Part shown: positions 3,649-58,634 of the stretch, piece after piece
Layout of the letters: every line of letters begins with the position of its first letter
Position numbering within the stretch: the first letter of the stretch is position 1
Origin: Antedon mediterranea
Lineage: Eukaryota; Animalia; Echinodermata
DNA length: 64,000 nucleotides
Direction of reading: 5' to 3'
Assembly (NCBI RefSeq): GCF_964355755.1
Contig: NC_092678.1
Coordinates: 16,969,881 to 17,033,880 of the forward strand
Program-made: the position numbers and the translations under genes
The notes under the pieces: generated by a model
What the model was told of the DNA's origin: nothing
Seen by the model: only the letters and a program-made list of their open reading frames with translations
Database searches by the model: none

Positions 3649-6600
3649 CTATTTTTGGTGATGTACAAATAAAAACATGATATAGTTATTCACTTAGACC
3701 ATGGATCAAGAAAAAATAATAAATTTCCTGAAAAAACTGTAATTTATTCAGATTGGCGTTTATGTTTTATAACTGAAAACATTTGTTTTTTTTCCTTATA
3801 TTTTTAGTAGTAAACTTTATTCAAACTACAAATGACCTATTCATTTTTTATGTTTTTTTGTACAATACACATGTTATCGAAATATCTTGCTATATATCGA
3901 CATAGTAATTCGATAACGATGTCTTACCTGAATATACGTTCGTACTTTTAAGTCGATTAATTTGATTAGATTTAAGTTATCTTATATCTTATGCAAAATT
4001 CATGTTACGAATGAGAGTACGTTTATTGTAAATACATAATATAAAAATAACGCTTAAAAGAGAACGACGTTTCGACTCCATCATGGGGTCATTATCAAGT
4101 CCATTGATAATGACCATATTATGGAGTCGAAACGTCGTTCTCTTTTAAGCGTTATTTTTATATTATGAAATTCATGTTTTTAAGTTAATTTGATTAAAGT
4201 ATGTGACCATCGGATCAATAATCAATATCAATGTAAACTTTACACCGACTTGTAGGTTCATGTTTTTTATATTAATTGTATATTAATATATTGCACACTT
4301 TTGACGATGATCTTAGCTTTAAAAAACCATGTGAATACTTACAATTCGTTTATGTTGATCAAGTTTTCAAAAGTACTATCTTTGTAATTTTTTAATTCGT
4401 TGTCATATATCCAACTGCAAAAAAACATTTTAAAATAAAAATGAGTAAAAGATTCAGTGGTGTTAGGTCATGAAGAAATTTCTCATTCTTATGTCTTTAG
4501 TGGTTTACTAACTTGGACGTAACGCACGGACGCTGTAATACAAAAATAGGTCATCCGAACTGTTGCTTTTGATTGAAATATATACAGTAGTTCATTTTAG
4601 ATATTATATCTAAGCATATATTACTATTATATTTACAATAATTTAAACTAATTTCTTTACAAAACAGACAGATTTAACTACAAGTTATGACTTCATACTG
4701 TAATTTAAATATGATAATATAATATAATATAACATGTATATCTATCCGTGCCACCACCACCACCACCAACCATTAATTAAGGAGATATGAGACTTCAAGT
4801 GGTAAATGGCGATCATTTTGAATTTATGTTAATTAACCCAATTTCCTTTTGGTAAACTTTAGATATGATGTTCATTTGGACCATATCAAGCAAACAAAAC
4901 CAAACAAAATTGTTGTTGCAATTTGTTTTAATGTTGACTTATCTTTACTGGACAAAGATACAATGACCTCATGGCAATGTTTTAAAGACGCCGTTGTGTG
5001 CTCAAATGCGCGTTCATGTCTAAAATATGGCACTGATGTTATGTCATTTTAAAGTAGACTTAATGGTCAAACATCATATTTAAAAAGAAACAATGTAATG
5101 TTTAGTGAGAGAAAGGTTGTAGTCAAGAGGCAGGAAACTGCAGGTGTTGTTTATTGCCTTTAGACATAAACAGGTACCACCGTACGAGAATCGGGTGTCC
5201 AACGGACGAGTACCATGTGTGTATATCGGGAACAAAGCTATTATAAAGTGTACAGATTTTACAGACTATGTCTACGACACATAATCTGTTGTATGACAAG
5301 AATTAATGAATGAGTCCGATAATTGTACAGAGCATCAAACAACTACATGCAGATTATTAAACATTTTGACAAACATAGCGTTTCATACGTATGGTAAGTG
5401 TACACACTGCATAGAAAACATCGAAACGCGACAACAGAAAAAAGACAATAACAGAGACTTGGGACAAGTCTACACAGTATTAACTTACAGTATTGAAAGT
5501 GATGAAGCAAAAGCAGAAAATGCACCTTGATCTATGGTAGTTATAGCGTTATCGTTTAAATACCTACAGATATTGAAAAAAAAAGACACACATTTCAAAC
5601 GGATTGATTTAAAACAATATTAATAATAATACTGTACAACAATACAATAAATAGATAACCACTACATTTGTCTGCTATATTTCACAGTACAGTTATTTGT
5701 ATTCAGCATTTCAGTGGGCGATTTAGACTTCGTTTGACACTCGAAACAATGTCAAATGAAAGGCAAGCTAATATTGCCATGAGGAGGTGCAAATCTGAGG
5801 TAGAGGGGAAAATGTAATGTGTACAAACAGATATCACCTCACCTTTATTTATAAAAGTTGAAAATCAGAAAAAAGGGGAGAATGTAGTGTATTATTTTTT
5901 GTTGTTTTTTTTTTTTCTCTTTTGTGGCGCAAACACCACTTTTATTCACATTCATATTATCTCATATTACATAAAATCGTATTATTTAACTTGTAAATGT
6001 CGTTACAGTTCATAAGTAACATTTTTAAATATATGAATTCTGTATTACTCCTTTTTTCATTAATTTTCGTATATTTTGTTATACACTTGACAGGATCATC
6101 ATTGTCATCTATCCCGTTTTAAAATAGTTCACACATTTTCATTTGTTTGTTTTCATTTTACAACCCGGATTATACAATATATTTATATACATGATAAAAA
6201 AAACAATAATAACTCAGTACCACCAGTAACCCGTATCACTGTAATTCTTTTTCGGTTAATCGTATCAAATTAGAAATTATATTATCATAATCTTATTTCT
6301 TAAAGCTACCCATTTTTCTATACTTGTTTCTTTATTGTTATATGTTTCACATTCAATGTTATATAACATATTGCTTTTAAATGAATTCCATAAAGATTTA
6401 CCCACTGGCTTATTTAGTGCAGATAACATTTTTATTCTATAAATAGTAAATGCTGCAAAAGTGTAAATATAATCTATTAGCTTATCTCCCGTTCCTAGTA
6501 TTAATTGTTTAAATGATATATTATTGTGATTTAAACTTACAAAGATACTAAGCATTTTCCTCCAATATTTCTGAATAAATCTACAACTAAAAAACAAATG

Positions 6601-16475: not shown

Positions 16476-16516
<41 letters not shown>

Positions 16517-34500: not shown

Positions 34501-37500
34501 CTGAATTAAAGAGACAAAACAATGGCAAAATAGAAAAACTCAAAAAGAGCAAAAAGAAAGATATTATATTTGAACGTATTACACATGAAACAGACATATT
34601 TCATAGAAGTATTAATTCCTAAAACAAAATAATTGTTTTTATGTTTAACTCTATGCCTCATAGAGTTAAACTGACGTTTTCATGAGAGGAAGATATATAC
34701 TATTTGTTCCACGTGCACAATAAGCTTATAAAACTATTGCAGATTATACGTGAATCGGTAACGAGTCGGTGACAAACCGAACGGATCATCCAGGAGTTCT
34801 GAAACGTCTGGCCAAGTGCGCTCTCTTTGCGCAGTATTATACGGAGGTGTGTCTATTTTTATTTTCGTATCTAATTTTGGCTTTAAAAACATGTCAGCCC
34901 AAAACAATCGCTACCACTGGATCCGCCCCGTCGGAATATTGTCGATATAAAATGATGGAGGTTCAGACGTTCTGTAGTACATTTAAATTGTATTATTTGT
35001 ATTCCCTCTTTAAACTTCATCTTAATTTCAATATAATAATATCAATTAAGTAATATTGTTTACTTAGAAGTATGCCAGTTATTCAGCACTTAAGAAAACA
35101 AAATCAGAAAAATGTAAACACATGTTACCAGGTTTTTTTAAAACATTAATACAGCTAAGTGTGTTAATTAATTAGATGTAAAGCACATTTTAGCATGAAG
35201 AAGTGAAAATATGGAGGGAAAGAAAACATAAAGTGTAGACACAGATATCACCTCACAAGCAATCTATTGCTGACCCAGTGTGAAGCCAGTAGTCAAGAGT
35301 TGTTCCTGCTCCCCAATTATTGTGGTCCCTTTATTTATAAAACTTGAAAAGCAGAAAAAAGAGGAGGAGGTGTATGTTTGTTTGTTGGCAGACTATAACG
35401 CTGGTTCAGATTTTAAGTTAAGTTTATCTTACGGACGGATAACGCTAATAATGTACGTACCACAACATTAGGTAATCGATGCGCCCCCATTATGACACGT
35501 GTGAATAAAGAACAAGTGCTATTCCACTGTACGGAAGGATAGCTACCCGATGCCTCTCATAATAATATTATTTTTCATTCAATAACATATATTAATAACG
35601 ATAATAATAATTTACTTTAAAACAAACGAAAGGTTGTAGTCAAGAGGCAGGAAACTGCAGGTGTTGTTTATTGCCTTTAGACATGAACAGGTACCACCGT
35701 ACGAGAATCGGGTGTCCAACGGACGAGTACCATGTGTGTATATCGGGAACAAAGCTATTATAAAGTGTACAGATTTTACAGACTATGTCTACGACACATA
35801 ATCTGTTGTATGACAAGAATTAATGAATTATGAGTCTGATAACTGTACAGAGCATCAAACAACTACATGTGGATTATTAAACATTTTGACAAACATGGCG
35901 TTTCATACGTATGGTACGTGTACACACTGTATATAAAACATCGAAACGCGACAACAGAAAAAAGACAATAACAGAGACTTGGGACAAGTGAGGGCGTGTG
36001 GCGCAGTGTGTTGGACGTTGGACTACCGATCGTCAGACCTAGGTTCGAATCCAACTCTCGCCGCATTGCTTGTATCCGTAGGCAAGATACTTTACTTACG
36101 TTGCCTCTCTCCACCCAGGTGTATAAATGGGTACCCAGTTAGATCTAGACACAACTGCGCTGGTTACCGGCTGCATTATGGGAGGATGTTTCCATACGTG
36201 TTTGATCCCAAAAAATACTGGGGTAATAATGCTTGTAAAGCGCCTTTGAGCATGATTACTCATGAAAAGGGCGCTATATAAATCTGGTATTATTATTATT
36301 ATAAGTCTATAAAGTATTAACTTACAGTATTGAAAGTGATGAAGCAAAAGCAGAAAATGCACCTTGATCTATGGTAGTTATAGCGTTACCATATAAGTAC
36401 CTGCAAATATTGAAAAAAAAGACACACATTTCAAATTATTAATAATAATACTGTACAACAATACAATAAATAGATAACCACTACATTTGTCTGCTATATT
36501 TCACAGTACAGTTATTTGTATTCAGCATTTCAGTGGGCGATTTAGACTTCGTTTGGCACTCGAAACAATGTCAAATGAAAGGCAGGCTAATTTTTGCCAT
36601 TGTGTACAATTCCAAACAGATATCACCTCAACTTTATTTATAAAACTTGAAAATCAGAAAAAAAGGGGAGAAGGTAGTGTATTATTTGTGGTTGTTGCCA
36701 GATGCCTAAACTCTAGAAAATGATAAATTAAGTTTATCTTACGGACGGATAACGCTAATAATAACAATTATTAATTCATAGTTATGCTTTATAGCTTTTT
36801 GAGGTTTTTTTTTGTGCACTTAGAAGAACTTATTTAAAGTGCATTTTAAGTATTGTTTTTCTTCTAGATTATTTCAGTCATCACAATAGTTAATATTTGT
36901 TTTATTTGGAGGTTCAGACTTAAACACAAAGTACAAATGTATATAGTGCACTATGCTGTGTGAATTAAAACTGAAACACAAAACCACCACATTAGGTAAC
37001 CGATGCGCCCTCATTATGACGTTTTTTTATAAGAGAAAGATACAAACCATGTGTTGCGCGTGCGAATAAAGAACAAGTGCAGCTATTCCAATGTACGGAG
37101 GGAAAGATAACCAATGCCTCTCATAAAAACATTATTTTTCACTTAATAATATTTACTAATAATGATAATAACAAGACGAGTTAGGTTATCCGCAGCGCAA
37201 ATGCCACGTGCACGTCATACTTTAGAATATTGAGCACAGAAAAACGATTATGCCATTGAAAAAATGTTAGTGTGGTCTCTATTTTGTGTCACGTCTAAGT
37301 ATATAGAGTATACACTATATATCTGTATACGTACTACTTACAGTGCAGAATAGGTGAAAATACCGGGACCCGCTTTTTCATCCAATGTTTACCATGATGA
37401 TGTCATCAAAACGAAACACGTAGATAGCAATTTTGGAAGGAAATTATCCGAGCAACAACATATCAACGTGTTGAATAAATTTGGATACGTATAATACGGA

Positions 37501-40500
37501 AGTGCGCTCTTTTAAATGTCATGAACTATGACGCAAAATATGAAATTACGACTGTTATAATTGAACTGGCCATATGATGACGTCACAACATTCGATTTGC
37601 ATAATTTGTACATGAATTCCTATTGTACAATTCAACAGTTTCCAGAAAACGTTTTAATCATGAGTATCACTTTTTATTCTGAGGAGCTATAATACATTTA
37701 AATTTATTGGAATGATGAAAAAAAGTGACCAAAGTCATTCACGCGTTTGAACATGATGAAGTCATCACAATTTTAAAAATGGTAAATCATGCGAAAGATA
37801 ATTGATTGACCTAGACAATATAAACATATGGGGGAAAATGGAATATGGATAAGTGGAGATGCGCTCTATTAAATGTGATGAGCTATACAAAAGAGACACA
37901 AATCCTATATTTTATATTCGAGTGGCCATACGATGACGTCACAATGTCTAGTTAGCCATATTGATACATGATCCGATATCAACAACTCATCTACTTCCAG
38001 AATATGTAAAAAAAAACTTCACCATGTAGTTTAGAAACTATGACTTTTGAAAAAAAGTCATAATTTTGACGATTTTTTTACTTTTTCATAAAAAACGGGC
38101 GCAAATTGTCCAATTCGACGTGCTCGTATGACGTGATTTTAAGTCGAAATTATTTGAAAGCTTGGAAAATTACTAGAAAAGGCTGAAAAAACATAAATCA
38201 CGCAAAAAAAATAACATTTACTAATAATGATAATAATAATTATACGAATAGGGCAAAGGTAAAAAATAAAATGATGTGACAATAAATGTGGTTATCTTAC
38301 AACGAAAATATACTATTTTCAAAAGTATGATAAACAAGAGCAAACACTCTCAGTTCTGTCAATGATGTCAAAACATCAAACACATTTGCTGTTAATGTAG
38401 TTATTTGGTTATTGTACAAGTACCTGAAAACCGTGAAAAAATTCAATAAATAAGTATAGTATATATACAGTACCAAAGAATAGTACGATAAAAATGATCT
38501 ATTTTATTAATTTAGAAATACTTTCCATATCATGATTTCTGGATGTAGATGTGTTCTGCTATATTTTTACGTTTGATATAATATGATAGAGGTTCCGACG
38601 TTCTGTGGTATATTTATTATTGTTTTATTTGTATGATCCCTGTAAACTTCATCTTAATTTCAAATATAATAATATCAATAAAGTAATATTGTTTACTTAA
38701 GCGTGATTCCCACTAGAACGCAACGCAACGTAGCGACGTGTCGACGCAAACTGCTGTATTGCGTAATCACAAATGGGAACCGACGACGCTACAATGCTGC
38801 AAAGCCGCAGGTTTGATTTCACGCAGGCGAGGGAAAACACAATTATCGGAAGGGCATTTTCTTACGCTGCGTAGGTTGCGTTACGTTGCGTCGCTAGAAG
38901 TTAGAAGAGTGCCAGTTATTCAGCACTGAAGAAAACAAAATAAGAAAAAATGTAAACACATGTTACCAGGTTTTTTTAAAACAATTATAAAGCTAAGTGT
39001 GTTAATTAATGAGATGTAAGCACATTTTAGCATGAGGAAGTGAAAATATGGAGGGAGAGAAAACATAAAGTGTAGACACAGATATCACCTCACAAGCAAT
39101 CTATTGCTGACCCAGTGTGAAGGCCGAAATCAAGAGTTGTTCCTGCTCCCCAATTATTGTGGTCCCTTTATTTATAAAACTTGAAAAGCAGAAAAAAGAG
39201 GAGGAGGAGGTGTATGTTTGTTTGTTGCCAGATGCCTATAAAGCTGGTTCAGAGTTTAAGTTATGTTTATCTTACGGACGGATAACGCTAATAATGTACG
39301 TACCACAACATTAGGTAACCGATACGCCCCCATTATGATACGTGCGAATAAAGAAAAAGTGCTATTCCACTGTACGTAGGGATAGCTACCCGATGCCTCT
39401 CATAATAATATTATTTTTTATTCAATAACATTTAATAATAATGATAATAATAATTTACTTTAAAACAAACGAATACAAGTAGGCCTCATTACACACAATA
39501 CAACTACAAACATGAGCTTGTGTTAAAAGAAAGGTTTAGGGATCAATCATAATCAAACAAAAACGGGCATATTATATTATTTTAGTTTTGGATGAATATT
39601 CTGTCTTTGCAAAGAGTAAAAAATGAAATGATGTGACAATAAGTGTGGTTATCTTACAACGAAAATATATTATTTTCAAAAGTATGATAAACAATAGAAA
39701 GCACTCACAGCCCTGTCAATGATGTCAAACCATCAAACACGTTTTCTGATATTGTAGTTATTTTGTTACTTTCCAACCATCTGAAAATTGTGAAAAAATG
39801 CATTAAATAAGTAGCCTATATAAATACAGTACCAAATGATAATACGAAAAAAAAAAAATTATTTTTTAAATTTGTATATACAAAAAAATATAACAACAAA
39901 TATCTTATTGTGCAAACAGAGGCCAAAAAAAGCTTATGTCTATTAGGCGTGTCACTCCAGCAGTGAAAACATTACAGGGTAGGCCTATATACAAGGACAT
40001 AAAAATGTTTGTTTAATGTTACTTTAGCTCGTATTATCATTAGTTGCATGTTTTAGCTGTTTTTCTTTAACTGCTTTTACATGATATAACTATGTTTTAT
40101 CTAGATTTACTGTAAATATGTTGTAATTTCTTTAATATCTACGATACAATACAACCGTTAAATGACGATGATCCATGTATTCTGCTATATTTTCATTTTT
40201 CATTATGGCCGCCGATATTGCTACAGTAACTGAATTAAATAGTCTTGAGTTCGCATAAACAATGTCAAAATAGAAAAAATCAAAAAGAGCAAAACGAAAG
40301 ATATTACATTTGATCGTATTACACATGAAACAGACATATTCCGTAGAAGTATTAATTCCTACAATAAAATAATTGTTTTTATGAGGCATAGCGTTAAACT
40401 GACGTTTTCATGAGAGGAAGATATAAAATATTTGTTCCTCGTGCACAATAAGCTTATTACAACACTATTACACTAAAGCATAAAGTTACACTTAACTGTG

Positions 40501-43500
40501 CCTTAACACCGTTTAATAGTTCAACCGATACAACATTCTGACTTGTCCAAATTTCTTTTTAAAAAAATCTGACAAATATAAACATGAAGAAATAAAAAGC
40601 AATGTCATTAATATACATCAGGCTTAAGAATAATGACATCAATTTTCGATAATCATAAGGACGAGTTCTCGAATGATTCTCTCATTTGTGCCGATGGAAT
40701 TGATATTTCCTAAGTTTACCTAACTACGGAGGAATAGATGCCTCAAATAATAACGTTTTCATGAGAGGAAGATATATAGCATTTGTTCCCCGTCAACACT
40801 ATTTCAAATCCCATGAATCGAAACAATATGTCGAGTGTGCCTATTCCTTCTTGTTCTTATTCCTCTTGAGAGGAAGATATATAACATTTGTTCCGCGTGC
40901 AAAATAAGCTTATAACACTATTGTAGATTATACGTGAATCGAAACAATTATGTCGAGTGTGCCGATTCCTTCTTGTTTTACTGTGGACAACCGCATAGAG
41001 AAACTTTAACATTAACGCCATGCGTCTGGATTGTCTGTGATTTTAAACGATTGTCAATGCTATCTCGACATATGACAATTATTTCTATTTGGTAATACAG
41101 AATCTCAAATGTATCACATGTGGTTCTTGTATCATTAGGTTAAGAATAAACATTTAAAATAATTATATAATTTCTCATTTAATAAAACATACCAGTTATA
41201 CAACAAACTACGTACAGGAGCTCGAGCTTGTGTTAAATTAGTACATATTTTTTATCATTTATATTAAGAATACATTAATCATAATGTTTAATGATGCTGT
41301 ATTATCGAATTTTAATGTTACTGGAGAAATCGAGATAGAATACCGATAATCAGGTGTGTTAGACCAGAATACGTTACTCCTGCTTAAAATGGAGGTCTTT
41401 GCTTTCACCACGTTCTGAAATGTGCCTGTAAGATTATGTTAGGCAAAAACAATACCGTGTATACCTAATAGCGGCCTGGTGAGACCTATGTATTGCCTTC
41501 GCTAAATCCTTTCTTAAACTTGTTCCCACTTATACCTTCTAGAGGAATGTTATCCATAGATATAACCCTAATATACTGCTGATTGGATTCGTCATTTTAT
41601 AATTGTAACACAATGTGTCATAAGAACTGTTCGTTATACCATGGTAGTATGTGGTGCAATTAATTAAAGAATTATGTGATTTGTAAATATTTTACACAAA
41701 GTGCAACACAGTGTGACGTATTGTCTGCTACAATATCTAATGATTACACATTTTTAATAATTATGTAGTTTCTCATTTAATAAAACATACCAGTTATAAT
41801 AACAAATTACCGTATTAAACGTACAAATCAAAGTATAAAAACAATAAGTATATACAGTACCAACGGAAATTACGATAAAAAAGTATCTATTTTATTAATT
41901 TCGAAATACAAAGAAAAAATAACAACAACATATCTATATTGTGAGGCCAAAAAGGCTTATGTCCAATTAGGCGTGTCAGTCTGACAATGAAACAATTACA
42001 AGGTATAATTGATATAATACTAATTGTATGTTACTTTATCTCGTATTATCATTATTTGCATGTTTTAGCTGTTTTTCATTAACTGTCTTTGCATGATTAT
42101 AACAATGTTTTATCTAGATTGACTGTAATCATGTTGTACTTTCCATATCATATGATTTCTGGATGTAGATCAATATCTACAACACAATACAAACGTTAAA
42201 TGACGATGATCCATGTATTCTGCTATATTTTTACTTTTCATTATGGCAGCCGACGGTGCTACAGTGACTGAATTAAATAGTCTTGTTCGTAAACAATGCC
42301 AAAATAAAAAAACTCGAAGAGAGCAAAAAGAAAGATATTACGCTTGAACGTATCACACATTAAACATACATATTCCGTAGAAGTATTAATTCATAAAATA
42401 AAATAATTGTTTTTGGAGGCATAGAGTTAAACTTACGTTTTCATGAGAGGAGGATAAGATAATATTGGTTCCTCGTGCAAAATAAGCTTATTACAACACT
42501 ATTGCAGATTATAACGTGAATCGGCGGTGATTGTACAGAGGCGTGTCTATTTTTGTTTTCGTATCTATAATTTTGGCTTTCAAAAATGGCAGCCCAAAGC
42601 AATCGCTACCCCTGGATCCGACCCGTCAGACTATTTTGATATACAATGATAGAGGTTCAGACGTTCTGTGGTACATTTAAATTGTATTATTTGTATTCCG
42701 TCTTTAAACTTCATCTTAATTTCAAATAGAATAACATCAATAAAGTAATATTGTTTACTTAGAAGTGTGCCAGTTATTCAGCACTGAAGAAAACAAAATC
42801 AGAAAAAAAATTTAACACATGCGACCACATTTTTTTAAACATTATTAAGGCTAAGTGTGTTAATTATTGAGATGTAAAGCACATAGGCTGATTTTAGCAT
42901 GAGGAAGTGCAGACTAGGCGAGAGGTGTTCGGTTTGTTTACAAATCTATACCCACTATTTCTGATTGGTCGCGAGCTTTCAATTGCCATAGTTGCTTTCT
43001 GGACGCACCAAAAGCGTTCGATCGAGTCAAATCTTATTTAAAGTTTTAGTTGAAAGAGGTGTGCCTATCTTTGTAGTTAGGATCTTACGACACTGGTATG
43101 ATAATCAAGAATTTGTTGTTAGATGGGGACATTGTGTCCCTTTACCTTTTTTCTGTTATTAACGGTGTGCGCCAAGGGGGTGTAATGTCTCCACTGCTTT
43201 ACAATGTAGCCTATTATATTGACGATCTTTATGTACAACTTAGAGAGTCCAATCATGGGTGTACTATTGGTGATAACAAAGTTAATTGTCTCAGTTACGC
43301 TGATGACATGCTTCTCATGGCTCCTTTTTCTATTGGAGTACTGAATCTCATTAATGTTTTTGAACTTTATGCTACGAATCGAGATATTGTGTACGGTACT
43401 ATACAATCCAAGTGTATGTTTTTATGTGCTCGTGTACGTAAGTTACAAGGTTGACCTAGTGTTAAGCTAAACCACACTGACCTTGAATTTGTTGACTGTA

Positions 43501-46500
43501 TAACATACTTGGGTCATATGATTTGTAACTCTCTGAATGTTGATAATGATATTAAGAAACAGTATCGAGCTCTGTGTATCAAAGCTAATGCATTATACAG
43601 GACATTCTACAAATGTTCCGTTGAAGTTAAATGTCAGTTATTTAAAATGTTTTGCGTTAATGTAGGCCAATACTATATGACTCTATGGAGAAAATTCCGT
43701 GAAGGTACTGTAAACTAATTTAGAGTTTTCTTTAATAACGGGTTGCGTAAGCTACTGAAAATTCTTAGTTATAGCATTATGTTTTTTAACGAATAACGTT
43801 CCCTCATTCTATAATTTGATGGAACGCTATACATTATAGTTTTAAGAGCATAATTCATGACAGTTGCAATAGCCTGATTCAAACCAACGTCATTCCACAA
43901 TCCAACCTACATCAGCGTTGGTACAAATTGGTATTTTTTAGGATATTGTAAGTTGATTTGTGGAAGTTGCTTATTTAATTTCCTGGTTAAATTGTTTCTA
44001 TTTTTGTTTTTTGTATGATTTGTATATGGATGTACTATCCGAAATAAAGAAAATGAATGAATGAATGAATAGTGTACCGTCATTTTAAAAGTGATATTAT
44101 TGGCCTAATACAACGTCATGGTATTTAGAAACAGTTAAACCTACCCTTAAATGCATAATTTCACAATTAACCAGATTTACTTACAATTGTAAAGCTTGTT
44201 GTTACAAGTAAGGAAAAATGAGAATAAACACTTACAGTGTAACCAATGACGTCAAACCAACAAATTCATTTCCAGACAATGTAGTAATGCCGTTAGAGCT
44301 TAAATCCCTTCAAAATAAAAACATGAATACTTGGTAAATAACAGTTCACGAGTTGAGGTTTCCTTCTTCGGGGAAAAATTGTTACAGTTTGGTGTGTATG
44401 TCAGCGGACAAAATTGTGACCGTAAAATAATGTATCTGCATTGTACTGTTAGTGTGTATTAATGTGTCAGTGAAAATTAAAGAGGGTCGATAATGGTGCA
44501 AACATTAAAATATTAAAACTAAAATAGAAAGTTTATCAATTGAGTACGTAGAACTAAAGATCCGAAGCCTAGTTGGTTGGAACTTGTTCCGCCAGAGATG
44601 GTTCCTGATCAAGTTCAAACTATCAAACACGTCACAGGAATTGTGGACAAATGTGGAAAACGCGTCAAACTTCGAAGGAAAAAATTCAAACCTCCAATGC
44701 CATCTGTTATTTTTGGTAATGCGCAATCACTCAAAACAAGTGAAATGGCTGCAAATGTATTCGAATACAGGAACAGTTGCCTTATGGCGATCACTGAAAC
44801 TTGGCTAATTGAATCTTTTCGGATAATGAATCAAAAAATTGTTCTTGTTATCTGGAATTATTAACAGTTGCTCTTCGTTCCTTTTACTTGCTAAGGGAAT
44901 TCTAGCAGGTTCTAGTCATCATTATCTATATGCAGACTTCAAAGTAGCTTGCGCTAAAGTCGCTGAGGTAGATATAGGCACATAAGCTGCAAATCTCCAG
45001 ATTCAATAAAGCTGTTAGCTTACTATGTGATCTCCACAAAGGATCCCATAAAGAGCTTTCAAAGGTAATTCCACACCTTCATCAATATGTAAACGTTGCT
45101 ACTAGAGAAGGCACTATATACTTGATATGTGCTATGGAAATGTTAAAAATGCTTATACAGCAAAGAGATGTCCAAGCATTGGGCGGTGAGATCACGAAAT
45201 GATACAACATGATCCCAAGCTATAATTCACGAACGTAGGAATCCTCAAAATGAATATGATACGCACATAGCTTAGTGCCTTTAATTATGATATTCATTAG
45301 GCCTACATTGGCCTGGGTTTACCCACTGTGAACTGTAGTGCTTTTTTTTTTCCTTATCAACCTATTCACGGGTATTAAAACGTATAAATCTAAAATTCCA
45401 ACACAGTATGACTCTATGATGGAGTAAATTCAGTGAAGGTAGGCCTACTGTGAACTCATTCAGAGTTTGCTTTAATAACGGGTTGCGTAAGCTACTGAAA
45501 TTTTCTAGTTATAATAGTGCAAGCATGATAATTATTTGTAACGAATAACGTTCCCTCATTCTATGAATATTGGAGGAACTCTATACATAGTTTTAAGAAC
45601 AGAATTCATGACAGTTGCAATAGCCTGATTCAAACCATATTTAACGTCCTAACACAATCCAACCTACTGTACAGTACATCAGCGTTGGTACAAATTGGTA
45701 TTTTTTAGGATATTGTAAGTTGATTTGTGGAAGTTGCTTATTTAATTTCCTAGTTAAATTGTTTCTATTTTTGTATGATTTGTATATGGATGTACTATCC
45801 GAAAATAAATGGGTGAATAGTGTACCGTAATTTTACAAGTTATATTATTGGCTAATACAACGTAATGGTATTTAGAAACAGTTAAACCTACACTTAAATG
45901 CATAATTTCACAATTAACCAGATTTACTTGCAATTGTATAAAGCTTTTAAATTGTTACAAGTAAGGAAAAAATGAGAATAAACACTTACAGTGTAACCAA
46001 TGACGTCAAACCAACAAATGTATTTTCATACAATGTAGTAATGCCGTTTCTGCTTAAATAACAGTTCACGAGTTAAGGTTTTCTTCTTCGGGGAAAATTG
46101 TTACAGTTTGGTATATATGTCAGCGGACAAAATTGTGACCGTAAAATAATTTATCTGCATTGTACTGTTAGTGTGTATTACGTGTCAGTGAAAATTAAAG
46201 AGGGTCGATAATGGTGCAAACATTAAAATATTAAAATTAAAATACAAAGTTTATCAATTGAGTACATAGAACTAAAGATCCGAAGCCTAGTTGGTTGTAA
46301 CTTGTTCCGCCAGAGATGGTTCCTGATCAAGTTAAAACTATCAAACACGTCACAGGAAGCGTGGACAAATGTGGAAAACGCGTCAAACTTCGAAGGAAAA
46401 AATTCAAACCTCCAATGCCATCTGTTATTTTTGGTAATGCGCACTCACTCAAAACAAGTGAAATGGCTGCAAATGTATTCGAATACAGGGACAGTTGCCT

Positions 46501-49500
46501 TATGGCGATCACTGAAACTTGGCTAATTGAATCTTTTCGGATCATGGATCAACAAATTGTTCTTGTCATCAGGAATTATTAACAGTTGCTCTTCGTACGT
46601 CACTTTTACTTCCTAAGGGAATTCTAGCAGGTTCTAGTCATCATTATCTATATGCAGACTTCAAAGTAGCTTGCGCTAAAGTCGCTGAGGTAGATATAGG
46701 CACATAAGCTGCAAATCTCCAGATTCAATAAAGCTGTTACTATGTGATCTCCACAAAGGATCGCATAAAGAGCTTTCAAAGGTAATTCCACACCTTCATC
46801 AATATGTAAACGTTGCTACTAGAGAAGGCACTATATACTTGATATGTGCTATGGAAATGTTAAAAATGCTTATACAGCAAAGAGATGTCCAAGCATTGGG
46901 CGGTCAGATCACGAAATGATACAACATGATCCCAAGCTATAATTCACGAACGTAGGAATCCTCAAAATGAATATGATACGCACATAGCTTAGTGCCTTTA
47001 ATTATGATATTCATTAGGTCTACATTAGGCCTGGGTTAGCCCACTGTGCAACTGTAGTGCTGTTTTTTTTTTTGTTCTTTAGTTCGATTCTTACAGGATA
47101 GTATTGTTTTATTTATCTAATCTATAGAAGGTTCAAAATTTTGTTTAGGGATTAATGTTAGATGGTGTGAGACTAAACGAGTTGTAACAGTAATGAAATT
47201 GAAGATGAGTACCACTTTCTGTTAATGTGTTAATACAACTTAAATTTATCGTTTGATTTATTTTGCAAAATACACTAAATTAGGAAACAACAGATTTTCT
47301 GTTGCATCCGCTTTAATAATAATTTGTTCACGGTCAGACCACCACCATAACGCTTTGACAAAATAAACATTTTAACCTTTCTACGTATTGATGATATAGT
47401 TTATAATTATTAAAATAGGCCTATATGGTAAGATATAACCACGTTACCCTAGCGTCATGGTATTTAGACTAAACCTACACTTAAACGTATAATAATCACA
47501 ATTAACATGATTTACTTACAATTGTAAAGCTTTTAAATTTTTACCAGTAAGGAAAAAATGAAAATAAACACTTACAGTGTAACCAATGACGTCAAACCAA
47601 CAAATTCATTTCTAGACAATGTAGTAATGCCGTTACTGCCTAAATCCCTTCAAAATAAAAACATGAATACTTGGTAAAATAACAGTTCACGAGTTGAGGT
47701 TTCCTTCTTCGGGGAAAAATTGTTACAGTTTGGTGTGTATGTCAGCGGACAAAATTGTGACCGTAAAATAATTTATTTGCATTGTACTGTTAGTGTGTAT
47801 TACGTGTCAGTGAAAATTAAAGAGTGTCGATAATGGTGCAAACATTAAAATATTAAAATTAAAATACAAAGTTTATCAATTGAGTACGTAGAACTAAAGA
47901 TCCGAAGCCCAGTTGGTTGGAACTTGTTCCGCCAGAGATGGTTCCTGATCAAGTTCAAACTATCAAACACGTCGCAGGAAGCGTGGACAAATGTAGAAAA
48001 CGCGTCAAAAAACTTCAAAGGAACAATTTAAAACCTCCAATGCCATCTGTTATTTTTGGTAACGCGCACTCACTCAAAACAAGTGAAATGGCTGCAAATG
48101 TATTCGAATACAGGGACAGTTGCCTTATGGCGATCACTGAAACTTGGCTAATTGAATCTTTTCGGATCATGGATCAACAAATTGTTCTTGTTATCTGGAA
48201 TTATTAACAGTTGCTCTTCGTCCCTTTTACTTGCTAAGGGAATTCTAGCAGGTTCTAGTCATCATTATCTATATGCAGACTTCAAAGTAGCTTGCGCTAA
48301 AGTCGCTGAGGTAGATATAGGCACATAAGCTGCAAATCTCCAGATTCAATAAAGCTGTTACCAGGGAGATGGAGTAACATCATAGTATGTTCTTTTGATC
48401 AGTCTACTTTTCCGACAGGAAGTAAAATAGATAAGACTTAATCCCCGATAAACAGTTCCTCATCAAGTAAACAATTTTCCCTGACGTAATCAATGACACG
48501 CGCATGCGCAGAAAAGTCAAAGTTGCTTCGCTTCGCTTGAATAACTCTGGCCTACGTCACACATCGTCAAGGTGTTTCAGAAAGCCAGATGATACAATCG
48601 CGACACACAATGACAACTGACGACTTCTATACCGATGTACGTAGACTTTTCCGATTTAGATTTCGATGATAGCGATTTAGAAGATGTTGATCTAAAATGA
48701 AAATGTGCCAATGTATTGCCCATGTGGGGAAAGTTCTGACGATCAAATGATCGCTTGTGAAGGCTGTTACTATGTAATCTCCACAAAGGATCCCATAAAG
48801 AGCTTTCAAAGGTAATTCCACACCTTCATAAATATGTAAACGTTGCTACTAGAGAAGGCACTATATACTTGATATGTGCTATGGAAATGTTAAAAATGCT
48901 TATACAGCAAAGAGATGTCCAAGCATTGGGCGGTCAGATCACGAAATGATACAACATGATCCCAAGCTATAATTCACGAACGTAGGAATCCTCAAAATGA
49001 ATATGATACGCACATAGCTTAGTGCCTTTAATTATGATATTCATTAGGCCTACATTAGGCCTGGGTTAACACACTGTGCAATTGTAGTGCTGTTTTTTTT
49101 GTTCTTCAGTTCGATTCTTACAGGAAAGTATTGTTTTATTTATTTAATCTATAGAAGGTTCAAAATTTTGTTTAGGGATTAATGTTAGATGGTGTGAGAT
49201 AAAACGAGTTGTAACAGTAATGAAATTGAAGATGAGTACCACTTTCTGTTAATGTGTTAATACAACTTAAATTTATCGTTTTATTTATTTTGCAAAATAC
49301 ACTAAATTAGGAAACAACAGATTTTCTGTTGCATCCGCTTTAATAATAATTTGTTCACGGTCATACCACCACCATAACGCTTTGACAAAATAAACATTTT
49401 AACCTTTCCACGTATTGATGATATAGTTTATAATTATTGAAATAGGCCTATATGGTAAGATATAACCACGTTACCCTAGCATCATGGTATTTAGACTAAA

Positions 49501-52500
49501 CCTACACTTAAACGTATAATAATCACAATTAACATGATTTACTTACAATTGTAGGCCAAAAGCTTTTAAATTTTTACCAGTAAGAAAAAAATGAGAATAA
49601 ACACTTACAGTGTAACCAATGACGTCAAACCACCAAATGTATTTTCATGCAATGTAGTAATGTCGTTACTGTTTAACTTCCTTCAAAATAAAAACATGAA
49701 CACTTGGTAAATAACAGTTCACGAGTTGAGGTTTTCTTCTTAGGGGAAAATAGTTACAGTTTGGTGTGTATGTCAGTGGATGAAATAGTGACCGTAAAAT
49801 AATGTATCTGTATTGTACTGTTAGTGTATATTACATGTCAGTGAAGATTAAAGAGGGTCGATAACGGTACAAACGTTAATATGTTATTAAAATTAAAATA
49901 CAAAGTTTATCGATAGAGTACGTAGAACTAAAGATCCGAAGCCTAGTTGGTCGGAACCTGTTCCGGCAGAAATGGTTCCTGATCAAGTTAAAACTAATGA
50001 ACACGTCACAGGAAGAAGCGTTGAAAAATGTGAAAGACGCGTCAAACTTCGAAGGAAAAAATTCAACTCTCCAATGCCATCTGTTATTTTTGGTAATGCT
50101 CACTCACTTAAAAACAAGTTTAGTGAATTGACTGCAAATGGCAGTATTCGAATACAGGGACAGTTGCCTTATGGCACTCGCTGAAACTTGGCTAAATGAA
50201 TCTGTTTCGGATCATGGATCAAACATTTTTCTTGTAATCTGGAATTATTAACAATTGCTCTTCGTTCCTTTTACTCGCCAAGGGAATTCTAGCAGGTTCT
50301 ATAGTCATCATTATCTATAGGCCTATACACCCGAAAGAATACTTCAAAGTAACTTGTGCTAAAGTCGCTGAGATAGACACATAAGCTACAAATCTCCAGA
50401 TTCAATAAAGCTTGGTGATTTCCACAAACGATCCCATAAAGAGCTTACAAAGGTAATTCCACACCTTTATCAATATGTAAACGTTGCTACGAGAGAAGGC
50501 ACTATATACTTGATAATTATGTGCTATGGATATGGTAAAAATGCTTATACAGCCAAGAGATGTCCAGGCATTTGGCGGTCAGATCACGAATTGATACAAC
50601 ATGATCCAAAGCTATAATTCACGAACATAGGAAGCTTCAAAATGAATATGATACGCACATTATCTTAGTTTCTTTAATTATGATATTCATTAGACCTACA
50701 TTGGCATGGGTTTACCCACTGTGAACTGTAGTGCTGCTTTTTTTTATTCTTCAGTTCGATTCTTCCTGTATAGTATTGTTTTATTTATTTATTCTATAGA
50801 AGGTTCATAACCATACGAACGTTAGATTATTGTAAAAACAAAATGTTCGATAAACTAAATCATTGGATTTTTGTCTAGATTTGGTAGTTTTTTTAGTTTT
50901 ACGAATTAATTTTTCCTTTTGTTAAGTGGGATTGATCGGCTGAATGGGTAATAATTTGTATGATTTAGCTTTGTAATTTATTTGTTATAGGTATAGTCTC
51001 TGGTCTATGTAGCAAGGGCAAATATTCTACAATTCAGACTCCAATAAATGAAATTAAGCAAATTTTGTATAGGAATTAATGTTAGATGGTGTGAGATAAA
51101 ACGAGAAAATAGACTATGTCAAGTTTGTAACAGGAATGAAATTGAAGATGAGTACCACTTTCTGTTTTAATATGTTAATACAACTTAAATTTATCGTTTT
51201 CTTTTGCAAAATACACTAAATTAGGAAAAACATATTTTATGTTGCATCCGCTTTAATAATAAAAATAAATAAAATATATTTTTATTGTCCACCACCACCA
51301 TAACGCTTTGACAAGCAAACACTTAATCCTTTCCACGTATTAATGCTATAGTGTACTAATATTACAATAATTATATTGTAAGACATCAGCACGTCACCCT
51401 GAACGTCATGGTACTTAGAAACAGTTAAACCTACCCTAAATGTATAATCACAATTAGCATGATTTACTGACAATTGTACACAGCAACCTCAAATCAAATC
51501 AAATCAAGTCTATATTCGTTTCATATATAAAAACGTAGCAAGTAAGTACTTGTCAACTGGTTTAACCAAAAAATTAACATTTATTTATTAAATAAAAAAT
51601 TTACATTGTTTTCCTCGAAAGAAAAATATGGTAAAACATTCACAATTACATCATACATAGAAAAAATTTACAATTTAAAAACATTAATAACATCCATATA
51701 TATATATATTGCATGTGCGCTATTATCATCTAACAATCTTTGAGTTAAAATATGCGTTGAATTTGGTACAAAAGACAGTCGGTGTCTTGACGCATCAGCT
51801 CTAAGAGCCTTTACATTTTTATAAGTAATTTTTCTGTATTGTATTACGTGTATTACTAGATGGTCGATAACAATAAGAACGTTAAATTATTATTTAAAAA
51901 ACTATGTAAAGTTTATTGACAGATTGTAGATCATCGTTTTTAACTAGAATTGGTAGTTTTTTTAATTTTTACGAATTCATTTTTCCTTTGGTTAAGATGT
52001 TAATAATTTATATGATTTAGCTTTGTAATTTATTTGTTATAGGTAAAGTCTCTGCACCTTGTTCAAATGTAATCTGATGTTTGCCTAACAATAATTTTAG
52101 AATTACAGAAAATCAATGATGTAATGATTTATTTGCTGTCTAGCACGTGAAATTATTCTTCCTTCTCTGTGCCTAAGGCAGAATGTGAAGGAAAACATTA
52201 GTATACATTTCCCAAAAAGTGACATAAAAGTATAAAGAATACTCGATAAAAATACTTTAAAAATAATCTCATATAGCGCCGCTACATACTCGCACATTAT
52301 TTGTTTAATAATTTAAGCAGATTCTGAAAGATATGAAGCGTTTTTTTCTATGTCAAAATACTACGTATGTAAGGATCAACGACTGTAACAATAACATCGA
52401 TGGATTTAAGAACAACCCTAAATACCTGTAATATAATAAATTACAAACAGTAATACAAATTAAAACTTAAAATCATCAGCTAACATACCCTTTTATCCGC

Positions 52501-54146
52501 TTTAATAATAAAGAATAAATCAAAGAAGTTGCTTTTGTTCACAGTCATACCACCATAACGCTTCACTTTGAATGTACCGTAATTTTACAAGTAATATTTA
52601 ACAGTTAAACCTACCGTTAAATGTATAATTTCAGAAATAACATGATTTATTTGAATTTTTATAAGTAAGAAAACAAAATGAGAATAAACACTTACAGTAT
52701 AACCAATGATGTCAAACCACCAAATGCATTTTCATACAATGTAGTAATGCCGTTACTGCTTAAATCCCTTCAAAATAAAAACAGTTGGTAAATAACAGTT
52801 CACGAGTTGAGGTTTTCTTCTTTGGGAAAAATATTTACAGTTTATGTCAGTAGATGAAATAGTGACCCTAAAATAATGTATCTGAAATGTACTATTGTTG
52901 TGTATTACTGTACGTGTTAGTGAAAATTAAAGAGAGTCGATAACGTTACAACAAACGTTAAAATATTATTCAAATTATAAATACAAAATATATCGATTTA
53001 GTACATACTGTAGTACGTCAGGAATAGGTTGTTCGTTTATATAATTACTGATATAAAGACGGAGAGATAACATTTTAATACATCTTAAAGGCAATTGAAA
53101 AATAATCAATCCTTTACTATAAGCCGAAACGTAGCAAGAGTATGTAACTTATTTGTTATAGAGAGAAAAATAGTGCATGTTTAGACACAAACCAGCACAG
53201 CTGATGTAATCTGAGGGTAGCCTACAATAATTAAAGTACACGTATAACTAAACGATAAAGAAAGAAATGTATACATAAATCAATGTCAAATAACTAGCTC
53301 GATGATATCAAACGGCGCCTCTACACACTCACACATTGATTCAATCCAAAGAGTTTACACTGACAAGAAAAGTCAGCATTTTTTTAAAGTTATGAATAAT
53401 CAACTACCAAAATAATATTAAAATTGTTTAAAATACCGTTCGTTATCTAATTTACGGACGTAGGAAGTCTAAAAATCAATATATATGTACATATTTGTTA
53501 TTTAGTGCCTTTGATTCTAACATCCGTTACTCTATTGTGTTAACCCACTGTGTAATAATAGTGTCTGTTTCTGTGGTTAATTGCGCGGTGCAATGCTGTT
53601 TTTTCAATTGAGGATTTTTCAATTCTGTTCTCGCACGATTGTATTATTCTATTTTATGAAAAGATGAGGGGCATTTTGGAAACACATTTTTTATACAATT
53701 CGAATGAGTGTACGATGTATTTAAACCAATTTACAGAACGTACGTACCGAAAAAAAAACACCATGGACTGAAATCGTTATTTTGTGAGGATGGTGCTAAT
53801 TGGAATGATTCGTCTACGATAGTCCAGTACTTTTACAATTAACTAATATTAATTTTCCGTTGTATCATTTTCATTTCTATATTTTGTAATAAAAATAATA
53901 TAATCATAATAACAATTTTTTTTTTAATATAAGCTTTAGAATTAACGTAACTGCGATCAACGTTTCAATGTTACTACGCCTGTTTTATGAAAGCTTACAG
54001 TTTGCACAAAACAGGTTCTTTGATGATACTTACAAGAATGTTATTGGTTGATGATTATTGTAGTTCCTGACGGATTCTGCTGTTGCATTAATATATTTCC
54101 GACAGCTTAAGTAGTTAAATATGCAATCGCATCCAGTTGGACATAT
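3495..54146 (-). CDS. Multi-exon LRR receptor-like gene (LRRNT, 10 intact single-LRR exons, GRL101/LGR-like hinge); 5' and 3' ends not resolved
   Basis: Exons with AG/GT boundaries splice in frame: 54146-54034, 52767-52696, 49680-49609, 47647-47576, 44307-44236, 39780-39709, 36400-36326, 32281-32210, 30196-30122, 5563-5489, 4414-4343, 3648-3495. Every LRR junction is phase 2 and splits the Leu codon (CT|N or TT|G). Confidence 0.85.
4035..4167. mobile_element. Penelope-like element end as an inverted (palindromic) pair
   Basis: Arms of about 62 bp: CATAATATAAAAATAACGCTTAAAAGAGAACGACGTTTCGAC ... GTCGAAACGTCGTTCTCTTTTAAGCGTTATTTTTATATTATG; CGAAACGTCG is typical of PLE pseudo-LTRs. Confidence 0.65.
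4343..4414 (-). CDS. LRR exon type D (72 bp) WIYDNELKNYKDSTFENLININEL
   Basis: tttgcag|T TGG ... GAA TT|gtaagt; 24-aa LRR pattern. Confidence 0.85.
5110..5903. repeat. Displaced copy of the type-C LRR exon unit
   Basis: Near-identical to about 29750-30540 and 35628-36690; cut at about 5904 by the LINE poly-A end. Confidence 0.9.
5489..5563 (-). CDS. LRR exon type C (75 bp) YLNDNAITTIDQGAFSAFASSLSIL
   Basis: tctgtag|G TAT ... ATA CT|gtaagt. Confidence 0.88.
8099..9962. mobile_element. Non-autonomous hAT element (1864 bp)
   Basis: TIRs CAGTGGTGGCGCCAG / CTGGCGCCACCCCTG; 8-bp TSD ATTCAACG at 8091-8098 and 9963-9970; removal restores the RT frame YNNVE-CVTVNNGW. Confidence 0.95.
8171..9110. 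repeat. Three tandem units of about 310-320 bp inside the hAT element
   Basis: GGGTACTTTTTGTCGGGGAATATAA recurs near 8179, 8502 and 8813 with collinear downstream sequence. Confidence 0.92.
10758..11308. repeat. 56-bp minisatellite, about 10 copies, downstream of the transposase stop
   Basis: Unit CTACATGGTCATAAACTTTATGACTACAGTATATGGTTGAGCTATTGTTATATAAA; period 56 (10923 to 10979). Confidence 0.95.
13890..14040 (-). mobile_element. Short LINE 3'-end fragment in a transposase intron
   Basis: TTTTCTCTTTT..CCACTTTTATTCA resembles the Tx1 3' end at 5910-5950. Confidence 0.4.
16477..16515. repeat. (TAG)n microsatellite
   Basis: About 13 TAG units. Confidence 0.95.
18392..19489. mobile_element. 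Foldback/MITE element of 1098 bp with arms of about 530 bp, Merlin- or MULE-like ends
   Basis: Termini GGCGCTAGTTCCG ... CGGAACTAGCGCC; 8-bp TSD GAACTTCG at 18384-18391 and 19490-19497; spacer about 18921-18964. Confidence 0.93.
19655..19720 (-). promoter_or_regulatory. Putative promoter of the transposase gene
   Basis: CpG-rich; ETS-like CCGGAAGT and three CGCGACCGATTTC repeats just upstream of a candidate ATG at 19647. Confidence 0.35.
20821..21503. repeat. Direct repeat A (about 680 bp), copy at about 22238-22915; CACTG start and AAATTACTG subrepeats suggest CMC/EnSpm origin
   Basis: Near-identical from GGCCTACACTGTTAAAAAAATTC to GGACACTTAACA. Confidence 0.85.
21502..22128. repeat. Direct repeat B (about 625 bp), copy at about 24758-25387
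   Basis: Near-identical from CAATGAGAATTATATCGTCGG to GGTTTTCATGGT. Confidence 0.9.
21813..21850 (-). ncRNA. Minimal hammerhead ribozyme motif, Penelope type
   Basis: CA-CTGATGA-A-GGGC-TAGTTTT-GCCC-GAAA-GCTC-TG: intact core, stem II and palindromic AGCT stem III; stem I is short. Confidence 0.55.
22852..23078 (+). pseudogene. Merlin (IS1595/ISXO2-like) transposase C-terminal fragment
   Basis: SNKWKVY...HLTVNHSKNVVDPITGVHTQNIESYWNREKLKLK matches the SDxWxAY / VNHS..FVDP.TG.HTQ.IES.W signature. Confidence 0.85.
25071..25108 (-). ncRNA. Second copy of the minimal hammerhead motif
   Basis: CTGATGAAGGGCTAGTTTTTCCCGAAAGCTCTG; one stem-II mismatch compared with the first copy. Confidence 0.45.
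26011..27052 (+). mobile_element. Degenerate LINE RT fragment, RTE-X-like
   Basis: IPGWNE..GKPKSG, RPIALASVVSKVLE, QFAFK, FLDASKAYD, GVRQGG; stops and deletions present. Confidence 0.88.
30122..30196 (-). CDS. LRR exon type C (75 bp) YLPYKNITTIDQGAFSAFASSISIL
   Basis: tttgcag|G TAT ... ATA CT|gtatgt; the conserved Asn is replaced by Lys. Confidence 0.75.
31026..32065 (-). mobile_element. Non-autonomous Helitron/Helentron-like element
   Basis: Minus-strand end has hairpin AACTCGTC-CATA-GACGAGTT then CAAATCTAG|TT; TGACGTCA-rich body; no TIRs. Confidence 0.6.
32210..32281 (-). CDS. LRR exon type B (72 bp) SLSSNQITTLPENVFDGLKSLTIL
   Basis: ttttcag|A TCG ... ATA CT|gtgagt. Confidence 0.92.
32434..32481 (-). 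pseudogene. Truncated type-B LRR pseudo-exon WLANNQITTLPANVF
   Basis: Acceptor intact; the 3' third and the donor are deleted, and read-through hits TAA. Confidence 0.85.
35990..36302 (+). mobile_element. tRNA-derived SINE with a Deu/Nin-like core and L2-like tail
   Basis: A box TGGCGCAGTGTG, B box GGTTCGAATCC, core CTCTCTCCACCCAGGTGTATAAATGGGTACC, tail GTAAAGCGCC..GGCGCTATATAAAT(TAT)n; absent from the paralogous units, with AAGT duplicated at the flanks. Confidence 0.9.
36326..36400 (-). CDS. LRR exon type C (75 bp) YLYGNAITTIDQGAFSAFASSLSIL
   Basis: tttgcag|G TAC ... ATA CT|gtaagt. Confidence 0.88.
37173..38210 (-). mobile_element. Duplicate of the Helitron-like element with its terminal hairpin and CTAG deleted
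   Basis: Collinear with 31045-32065; begins AACAAGACGAGTTAGG. Confidence 0.6.
38352..38423 (-). pseudogene. Type-B LRR exon YLYNNQITTLTANVFDVLTSLTEL with a mutated donor
   Basis: Open 72-bp frame and intact acceptor, but the donor reads gagagt where the paralogs have gtgagt. Confidence 0.85.
38700..38900. mobile_element. Small MITE, PIF/Harbinger-like, right end eroded
   Basis: Insertion relative to paralogs (TTACT^TAGAAG); AGCGTGATTCCCACTAG start; inverted ACGCAACG/CGTTGCGT repeats. Confidence 0.6.
39709..39780 (-). CDS. LRR exon type B (72 bp) WLESNKITTISENVFDGLTSLTGL
   Basis: ttttcag|A TGG ... GGG CT|gtgagt. Confidence 0.92.
42990..44070 (+). mobile_element. RTE-X-like LINE 3' portion with a (GAAT)n tail; shorter 3' copy at about 45465-45820
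   Basis: FLDA.KAFD, NGVRQGGVMSPLLYNV, LSYADDMLL, YLGH; AATAAA followed by GAATGAATGAAT. Confidence 0.88.
44236..44307 (-). CDS. LRR exon type A (72 bp) DLSSNGITTLSGNEFVGLTSLVTL
   Basis: ttttgaag|G GAT ... ACA CT|gtaagt. Confidence 0.9.
44570..45230 (+). mobile_element. Rex1/Babar LINE APE-endonuclease remnant; further copies at about 46290-46950, 47910-48980 and 49950-50630
   Basis: LRRKKFKPPMPSVIFGNAHSLKNK, DSCLMAITETWL, RPFYLPREF, HQYVNVATRE, LDMCYGN, GRSDH across frames. Confidence 0.85.
45990..46059 (-). pseudogene. Type-A LRR pseudo-exon LSRNGITTLYENTFVGLTSLVTL lacking its acceptor
   Basis: A deletion of about 34 bp between two TAAAT microhomologies removes the pyrimidine tract and AG. 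Confidence 0.85.
47576..47647 (-). CDS. LRR exon type A (72 bp) DLGSNGITTLSRNEFVGLTSLVTL
   Basis: ttttgaag|G GAT ... ACA CT|gtaagt. Confidence 0.9.
48362..48762 (+). mobile_element. 401-bp insertion with an 8-bp TSD and a PHD-finger fragment
   Basis: TSD GCTGTTAC at 48354-48361 and 48763-48770; starts CAGGG; ends in ENVPMYCPCGESSDDQMIACE; empty site at 46733-46740. Confidence 0.85.
49609..49680 (-). CDS. LRR exon type A (72 bp) KLNSNDITTLHENTFGGLTSLVTL
   Basis: ttttgaag|G AAG ... ACA CT|gtaagt. Confidence 0.9.
51490..51890 (-). mobile_element. LINE 3' end (Rex-Babar-like) with an (ATTTG)n tail
   Basis: CAAATCAAATCAAATCAA tail; minus strand reads ALRADASRHRLSFVPNS, resembling the R...SF.P C-terminal motif. 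Confidence 0.5.
52696..52767 (-). CDS. LRR exon type A (72 bp) DLSSNGITTLYENAFGGLTSLVIL
   Basis: ttttgaag|G GAT ... ATA CT|gtaagt. Confidence 0.9.
54034..54146 (-). CDS. LRRNT cap exon ICPTGCDCIFNYLSCRKYINATAESVRNYNNHQPITF(L)
   Basis: aaacag|ATA TGT ... TTC TT|gtaagt; CPxxCxC-x6-C cap; its phase-2 end joins the first LRR exon. Confidence 0.9.
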
Positions 54147-56478: not shown

Positions 56479-56561
56479 TTAAAGGGCCTTCAAACTGGGG
56501 TATAACCTACTAATTAAAAGGATGGACATTTTCGGGATGCACAATATAAAAACTAGACTAC

Positions 56562-58605: not shown

Positions 58606-58634
58606 CATATGGCAAGCCTCAGCTGTCTGAAGTA

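Follow-up and report, generated by a model that had tools for sequence, protein, structure and literature searches.

The window, by which we mean the whole 64,000-nucleotide stretch of animal DNA analysed here (31% GC, 0 N), carries 13 copies of an exon that encodes a single LRR, identified by a splice-aware scan and profile searches of the window and all lying on the minus strand. They belong to four types, A (five copies), B (four), C (three) and D (one), and are followed by a hinge exon; the order from 5′ to 3′ is A1 A2 A3 A4 A5 B1 B2 C1 B3 B4 C2, then a 24.6-kb intron, C3 and D (Table 1). An intact copy is made of one base, 23 or 24 codons and two bases (72 or 75 nt), and since the copies are symmetric and have the same phase, any intact LRR exon can be added or skipped in frame. 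The AG/GT splice dinucleotides are kept in ten of the 13 copies and three are damaged (A4, B2 and B3). When joined by script along the predicted splice path, the ten copies, the hinge exon and a candidate last exon gave one open frame of 300 codons, with no stop or frameshift across the ten exons and the hinge. A preliminary description of this DNA, made from the letters alone, had quoted a series of motifs and codons for types A, B and C, all of which were found, on the minus strand; its list of copies was right as to their presence, while the damage to A4, B2 and B3 and the existence of exon D and the hinge exon had escaped it.

Table 1. Exons, exon copies and tandem arrays of the LRR locus (positions in the window)
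Feature	Position	Strand	Remarks
LRR exon A1	52696..52767	-	72 nt; AG/GT intact; first exon found; Pfam LRR_8 E=9e-4
LRR exon A2	49609..49680	-	72 nt; intact
LRR exon A3	47576..47647	-	72 nt; intact
LRR exon copy A4	45990..46056	-	~35-nt deletion took acceptor and first codon; likely pseudoexon (alignment)
LRR exon A5	44236..44307	-	72 nt; intact
LRR exon B1	39709..39780	-	72 nt; intact; Pfam LRR_8 E=1e-4
LRR exon copy B2	38352..38423	-	GA donor instead of GT; likely skipped
LRR exon C1	36326..36400	-	75 nt; intact
LRR exon copy B3	32419..32481	-	29-nt deletion took 3′ end and donor; pseudoexon
LRR exon B4	32210..32281	-	72 nt; intact
LRR exon C2	30122..30196	-	75 nt; splice dinucleotides intact; Lys for consensus Asn
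LRR exon C3	5489..5563	-	75 nt; intact; intron between C2 and C3 transposon-filled
LRR exon D	4343..4414	-	72 nt; terminal repeat, present once; nhmmer E=4e-10 (D is part of the profile)
Hinge exon	3495..3648	-	last LRR strand, GRL101-type four-cysteine cap and hydrophilic Thr-rich tail; weak acceptor, good donor
Candidate last coding exon	2637..2657	-	strong acceptor; six codons then stop; predicted only
Alternative in-phase 3′ segment	2404..2544	-	speculative; weak acceptor; a single stretch is hydrophobic (19 aa, average hydropathy 1.88)
Tandem array of type A exon-plus-intron units	43667..53007	.	1.5-3 kb units, recombinant; self-BLAST and incompatibility test
Tandem array of B-C units	28875..42909	.	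includes two exon-less B upstream-intron remnants (34035-34741, 41849-42506); self-BLAST; profile search found no exon there

In the 11 kb upstream of A1 (52768-64000) profile and splice scans gave no credible LDLa or signal-peptide exon and no other 5′ exon, and the 5′ end of the gene probably lies outside the window. There was no Rfam match and no tRNA in the window, and no homologue was found for the ORF containing exon B4 in a search that is weak at its query length of 23-51 residues.

Duplication and exchange of exon-intron units

By self-BLAST, exon and intron were duplicated together, in type A units and in B-C units that alternate along their array. The grouping of the type A units changes with position, A1 going with A2 at upstream sites, and A2 with A3 and A4 with A5 at downstream sites; neighbour compatibility among these units was 0.83 vs. 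0.57, and 0 of 5000 shuffles reached the observed value. The type A units are recombinant mosaics and sequence exchange between units is supported, so that the fixed trees used in the omega models below are only approximate. The near-identity of the flanks noted in the preliminary description is found in type C only, the flanks being overall 4-14% diverged with indels and insertions.

Two possible local sources for exon patches were tried and rejected. Template switching (quasi-palindrome) as the origin of the patch in C2 gave an inverted match of 9/12 (P=0.19), with P=0.19-0.97 in all nine exons tested, and the search for a donor tract within the window gave longest outside matches of 8-11 nt, the 11-nt ones being common to sister exons.

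A decayed retroelement fragment, seen from ORFs and self-BLAST at 44500-50600, lies inside the type A unit and was copied along with it. At 35990-36302, 24 nt past the C1 donor, there is an insertion of ~310 nt that is missing from the C2 and C3 units; we take it to resemble the pattern of a tRNA-derived SINE, and ARAGORN found no tRNA there.

Change at the predicted binding face

A profile of the repeats was compared with the PDB, where designed LRRs and VLRs were the best matches (53 sequences at E<0.001, including VLR chains at E 8e-19 and others), which fixed the register of a 24-residue LRR. The xxLxLxx strand is the binding face in VLR-class LRRs, as described in the available part of PMC5395774. 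The face codons were set beforehand from the LRR consensus and the PDB register as codons 1, 3 and 4 (x5, x7, x8), codon 6 (x10) and the last two codons (x2, x3). Position x2 turned out to be unchanged within each type, and in C2 the consensus Asn itself was hit and is now Lys.

The preliminary description had placed the variation on the concave face, with type C exons differing almost only there. In the three type C pairs, 8/18, 4/18 and 5/18 nucleotides differ in the six face codons against 2/54, 0/54 and 2/54 at the other exon positions; with 4.2-4.4% divergence in the aligned type C introns, the face excess has binomial P of 4e-7, 7e-3 and 7e-4. Counted as variable columns, the excess of face over intron extends to all three types: 9/18 vs. 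14/200 in type C (P=9e-6), 12/18 vs. 17/111 in type B (P=1.5e-5) and 8/18 vs. 38/181 in type A (P=0.03). Along whole units, the most divergent 12-nt window falls in the exon for the alignments C2/C3 (783 nt), C1/C2 (2130 nt) and A2/A3 (1612 nt), and for A4/A5 and A3/A5 the top exon window ties with intron windows. The variation is not confined to the face, as a second cluster was observed in types A and B at codons 11-14, outside xxLxLxx (6/12 and 5/12 columns, P=0.03 and 0.04). Because of this second cluster, the enrichment of the face over other non-consensus positions is modest: 18 of the 30 amino-acid changes fall on it, among 16 non-consensus positions (P=0.036). The consensus Leu and Asn codons that stand between the variable ones changed in 0/21 and 1/21 cases in A and B, respectively.

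Related exons were also seen in the contigs of four sequencing runs, X1, X5, X6 and X8, from three studies under two organism labels, in which a 123-nt stretch around C3 matched 59, 14, 32 and 28 contigs, respectively; the variants were read from 32 of these 133 pieces. Among the pieces listed, three near-identical C-type pieces were fully resolved by matching table depths. An X5 piece with the flank marks of C1 differs from the C1 exon only at x8 (Asp for Gly), an X5 piece with the C3 flank differs by three bases in codons 5-6 (Val at x10), both at depth 6-7 and with alleles not separable from paralogs, and a piece common to X6 and X8 carries Asp at x7 together with a change at codon 11 and a silent one. 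Two further C-type pieces, resolved only in part, bring in Ser at x5, and Val at x8 combined with Gly at x10. Contigs more distant than these differ at codons 11-13 and 17 as well, which agrees with the second cluster. No splice joints were seen in the contigs of the four runs at the C3 and hinge stretches; the contigs are DNA-like and silent on expression.

In order to estimate omega we used a joint model, consisting of HKY on filtered intron columns (181, 111 and 200 for A, B and C) and a codon model with class omegas on ten of the 13 exons, of 23-24 codons; the damaged A4 and B3 and the single D were excluded and B2 was included. The preliminary description had tied its claim to divergence from intron background and to dN/dS, and in both respects the face stood out. 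With intron-calibrated branches the face omega was 5.7 (LRT 38, P=7e-10), a value to be read with the caveat that the intron filter favours conserved columns and that recombination, which makes fixed trees wrong, can inflate omega. It was 7.3 with exons alone (P=4e-6) and 3.7 when multi-nucleotide changes made up 15% of events (P=3e-5). By type it was 7.6 in B, 9.7 in C and 3.3 in A (P=0.009), the last falling to a non-significant 1.8 with multi-nucleotide events (P=0.28); a face of five positions gave 5.9, and leaving type C out gave 4.9-5.4. Codons 11-14 had omega 2.6 (P=0.02), or 3.3 in A and B together (P=0.005), and codons neither on the face nor in the consensus were at ~1. The consensus codons were constrained in A and B (omega 0.2, P=0.02-0.05); the overall value of 0.5 is explained by the loss of the consensus Asn in C2. 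Relative to the introns next to them, the predicted face codons have changed at about four to six times the rate. The clustering of change on the face is real and statistically supported, and its cause is not settled.

A different explanation for this clustering needs no net selection for new amino acids: multi-nucleotide patches would have entered the exons within their first 18 nt, either through short-tract conversion with LRR exons elsewhere in the genome as donors or through mutation at a local hot spot. The log-likelihoods were -1460.6 for selection, -1462.1 for a hot spot (omega 1, face rate ×4.7) and -1460.2 with both free (omega 3.1, rate ×1.8), so that the rate multiplier is only 1.5 units worse; an omega above 1 given a free rate had P=0.05, or 0.086 with the multi-nucleotide term also free, and a rate above 1 given omega had P=0.37-0.49. 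In simple counts pN at the face codons was 0.62 vs. pS 0.40, and the synonymous change was itself raised there (pS 0.40 vs. 0.16), including one Ser-to-Ser change through two nucleotides in A5, which also qualifies the earlier statement that the changes are often multi-nucleotide and non-synonymous. The many contigs matching C3 show related exons that could serve as donors, and there is a precedent in APL1, whose diversity is accounted for by conversion according to the part of PMC9222773 available. However, neutral change would not be expected to pass over the interleaved consensus Leu and Asn codons of A and B, nor to strike the same positions in three old exon types, and no donor or inverted template was found within the window. 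We consider conversion or a hot spot without net selection unlikely. Selection on the face is favoured but not proven, being only weakly preferred over a neutral local hot spot. What tips the balance is position: in three old exon types, the codons that vary sit among Leu and Asn codons that do not. The preliminary description had left the choice between diversifying selection and short-tract conversion open; the face excess behind its proposal is confirmed, and the two mechanisms are not separable by these models (1.5 log units; P=0.05-0.09).

The hinge exon and the 3′ end

The hinge exon encodes a Cys-Cys pair, seven residues, Cys-x-Pro and a last Cys followed by charged, acidic and aliphatic residues, with D-x-x-R before them. 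By eye it resembles the GRL101-like proteins of Acanthaster and Amphiura among the matches listed in the available supplement of PMC8286064. Automated searches with this exon found no homologue, including among Pfam LRRCT and the VLRs of the PDB, and gave in Pfam only a spurious hit at E=0.045; these searches are weakened by the short query. Its acceptor scores weakly, at -0.7. The hinge stretch is present in contigs of all four runs, and two of the pieces listed are gap-free.

In echinoderm GRL101, TM1 starts about ten residues past the last hinge Cys, as far as the same supplement goes, whereas here that Cys is followed by 25 mostly polar residues up to a good donor, with a maximum 19-residue hydropathy of -0.68. 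There is no TM1 in the hinge exon in any frame, which also rules out a frameshifted one, and no 7TM-like frame in positions 1-3494 of the window. The strongest in-phase acceptors after the hinge lead to a stop after three or six codons; one of them lies 837 nt on. Judging from the hydrophilic tail into which the hinge exon leads, and from the stop six codons past the next strong acceptor, the predicted product is likely to be an ectodomain-only, possibly soluble, derivative of an LRR-GPCR family. The RXFP1 papers, in the parts available, confirm a hinge disulfide and give no hinge-retaining truncated form.

A 770-nt contig of X1 matches the hinge exon with 21 differences together with 2254-2560 (overall 2254-3637) and has only 238 letters between the two, which shows that the hinge occurs a second time, in a copy or allele whose 3′ region is different.

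Interpretation and comparison with known systems

On balance we think it probable that the locus is a germline LRR recognition gene that duplicates and recombines, with a predicted binding surface under diversifying selection and a GRL101-type scaffold that likely lacks the 7TM part. Under such a scheme, unequal crossing-over and conversion would copy, delete and homogenise whole exon-intron units, homogenisation would keep introns and structural codons alike, and new residues at x3, x5, x7, x8 and x10 (in A and B also in loop 11-14) would be retained because they shift ligand specificity, while intact exons could be gained, lost or skipped without a break in frame. The ligand would likely be foreign and fast-changing, such as a microbe, a parasite or a non-self cell, and the product likely without 7TM and possibly soluble.

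The locus may also be decaying, given that three of the 13 copies are dead, C2 has lost its Asn, the hinge acceptor is weak and the window has neither a signal peptide nor an N-terminal exon. Taken further, it could be a decaying truncated copy of an LRR-GPCR, with a face diversity left over from selection in the past or in paralogs that function, which would agree also with the missing TM1 past the hinge, the two exon-less unit remnants, the transposon-filled intron between C2 and C3 and the omega of ~1 at codons outside face and consensus. On the other hand, ten exons and the hinge have remained free of stops and frameshifts, A and B show constraint on their consensus codons, the hinge stretch occurs in all four runs, gap-free in two of the pieces listed, and expressed brown-algal ROCO genes also hold dead exons, according to the available part of PMC3341825; we regard a relic as a distinctly unlikely account. 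Very unlikely, in our opinion, is a full LRR-GPCR with a short post-hinge insertion and 7TM exons beyond the window, or A, B and C copies spliced as Dscam-style alternatives: the window ends 3.5 kb past the hinge, so that a 7TM exon could lie beyond its left end, all exons have one phase so that skipping keeps the frame, and brown-algal ROCO LRR exons are alternatively spliced (PMC11378527, in the part available), but the polar stretch where TM1 is expected and the strong acceptor leading to a stop speak against the former, and against the latter B and C alternate instead of forming separate clusters and intron length permits the inclusion of all copies.

The germline recognition gene that we favour can be set beside four described systems, each known to us through the available parts of the papers cited. 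In the LRR-ROCO and LRR-only genes of the brown alga Ectocarpus each LRR is one 72-nt exon, inactivated copies lie in introns, the LRR region recombines and concave-face residues are under positive selection, with omega ~5.9 at the selected sites (PMC3341825, PMC11378527). The exons described here share with them one repeat per symmetric exon, dead copies, recombination and a high face omega (3.7-7.3, with the hot spot as a rival), and differ in the animal host, the GRL101-type extracellular cap, the lack of ROC-COR, the presence of 75-nt exons and the strand of the copies, none of the 13 being inverted onto the other strand.

GRL101, of the type C LGRs, is described as a single conserved ortholog per ambulacrarian species (PMC8286064); it has LDLa repeats, a 7TM immediately behind the hinge and, in Lymnaea, six LRRs (PMC8286064, PMC6267866). 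As in GRL101, the LRRs here close in a four-cysteine hinge, which by eye has the spacing and the D, R and P landmarks of echinoderm GRL101; unlike in GRL101, there are at least 10-13 young hypervariable LRRs and no TM1, 7TM or credible LDLa exon within the window, outside which the 5′ end probably lies.

The VLRs of lamprey and hagfish are put together in lymphocytes by a cytidine deaminase. Their germline gene is incomplete and is filled somatically from flanking cassettes that are not spliced (PMC5395774, PMC13428168). The locus has in common with them the 24-residue LRR class, VLRs being its best natural PDB matches, and the variable xxLxLxx strand. It is not a VLR, however: its repeats are spliceable exons in order, ten of 13 with AG/GT joining in frame, and its cap is a GRL101 hinge rather than a connecting peptide or LRRCT-stalk-GPI end. 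The parallel with VLR hypervariable sites drawn in the preliminary description can thus be kept as regards the variable strand, and as an analogy only, given the exons spliceable in place and the GRL101-type cap. Anopheles APL1 is, like this locus, an invertebrate LRR gene, there of immunity, that is highly diverse at the amino-acid level and whose paralogous copies exchange sequence; in APL1 the exchange is between whole-gene paralogs and is explained by conversion, and one-repeat exon units and a GPCR hinge are absent from the description compared (PMC9222773).

Descriptions of recognition diversity in echinoderms centre on TLRs, NLRs and scavenger receptors, encoded in the germline as large families (PMC13428168, as far as available), and no report of a crinoid system of the present kind was found in the open-access literature searched. 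A hormone-receptor scaffold remade as a modular, face-hypervariable LRR array would be another route, one described until now for the ROCO genes of brown algae, and the locus would offer a living model for the rise of VLR-like cassette diversity in a deuterostome germline. A wider proposal, which we put forward tentatively and hold to be somewhat unlikely as a whole, is that a crinoid GRL101-derived LRR family diversifies its face by exon-unit shuffling and selection, the present locus being a secreted, 7TM-less, germline 'antibody-like' or decoy member with a copy set and face residues that vary from one individual to another, and perhaps with combinatorial splicing of its same-phase exons. 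A soluble member, if true, could be expressed and its binding screened directly against microbes.

Several mobile or repeated sequences surround the exons. An intron-containing DUF7869 gene (Pfam E 1e-35 and 7e-33) lies at 11400-19800 on the minus strand, inside the C2-C3 intron and in the orientation of the host gene; it is likely to be a large DNA transposon. Directly upstream of the C3 unit, a non-LTR retrotransposon (6085-10236; RVT_1, zf-RVT) is split by a GC-rich element of 1.9 kb (~8100-9960), inside which there is a tandem repeat of 299 nt. Nested duplications (684 nt, 98.5%; 631 nt, 98%) were found at 20020-25388 within an element with inverted ends (20020-20285 and 23391-23668), and decayed reverse-transcriptase fragments occur on the plus strand at 26601-27209 and 43077-43718. 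A long inverted repeat with 1.7-kb arms of 96% identity, spaced by 170 nt, occupies 60461-64000.
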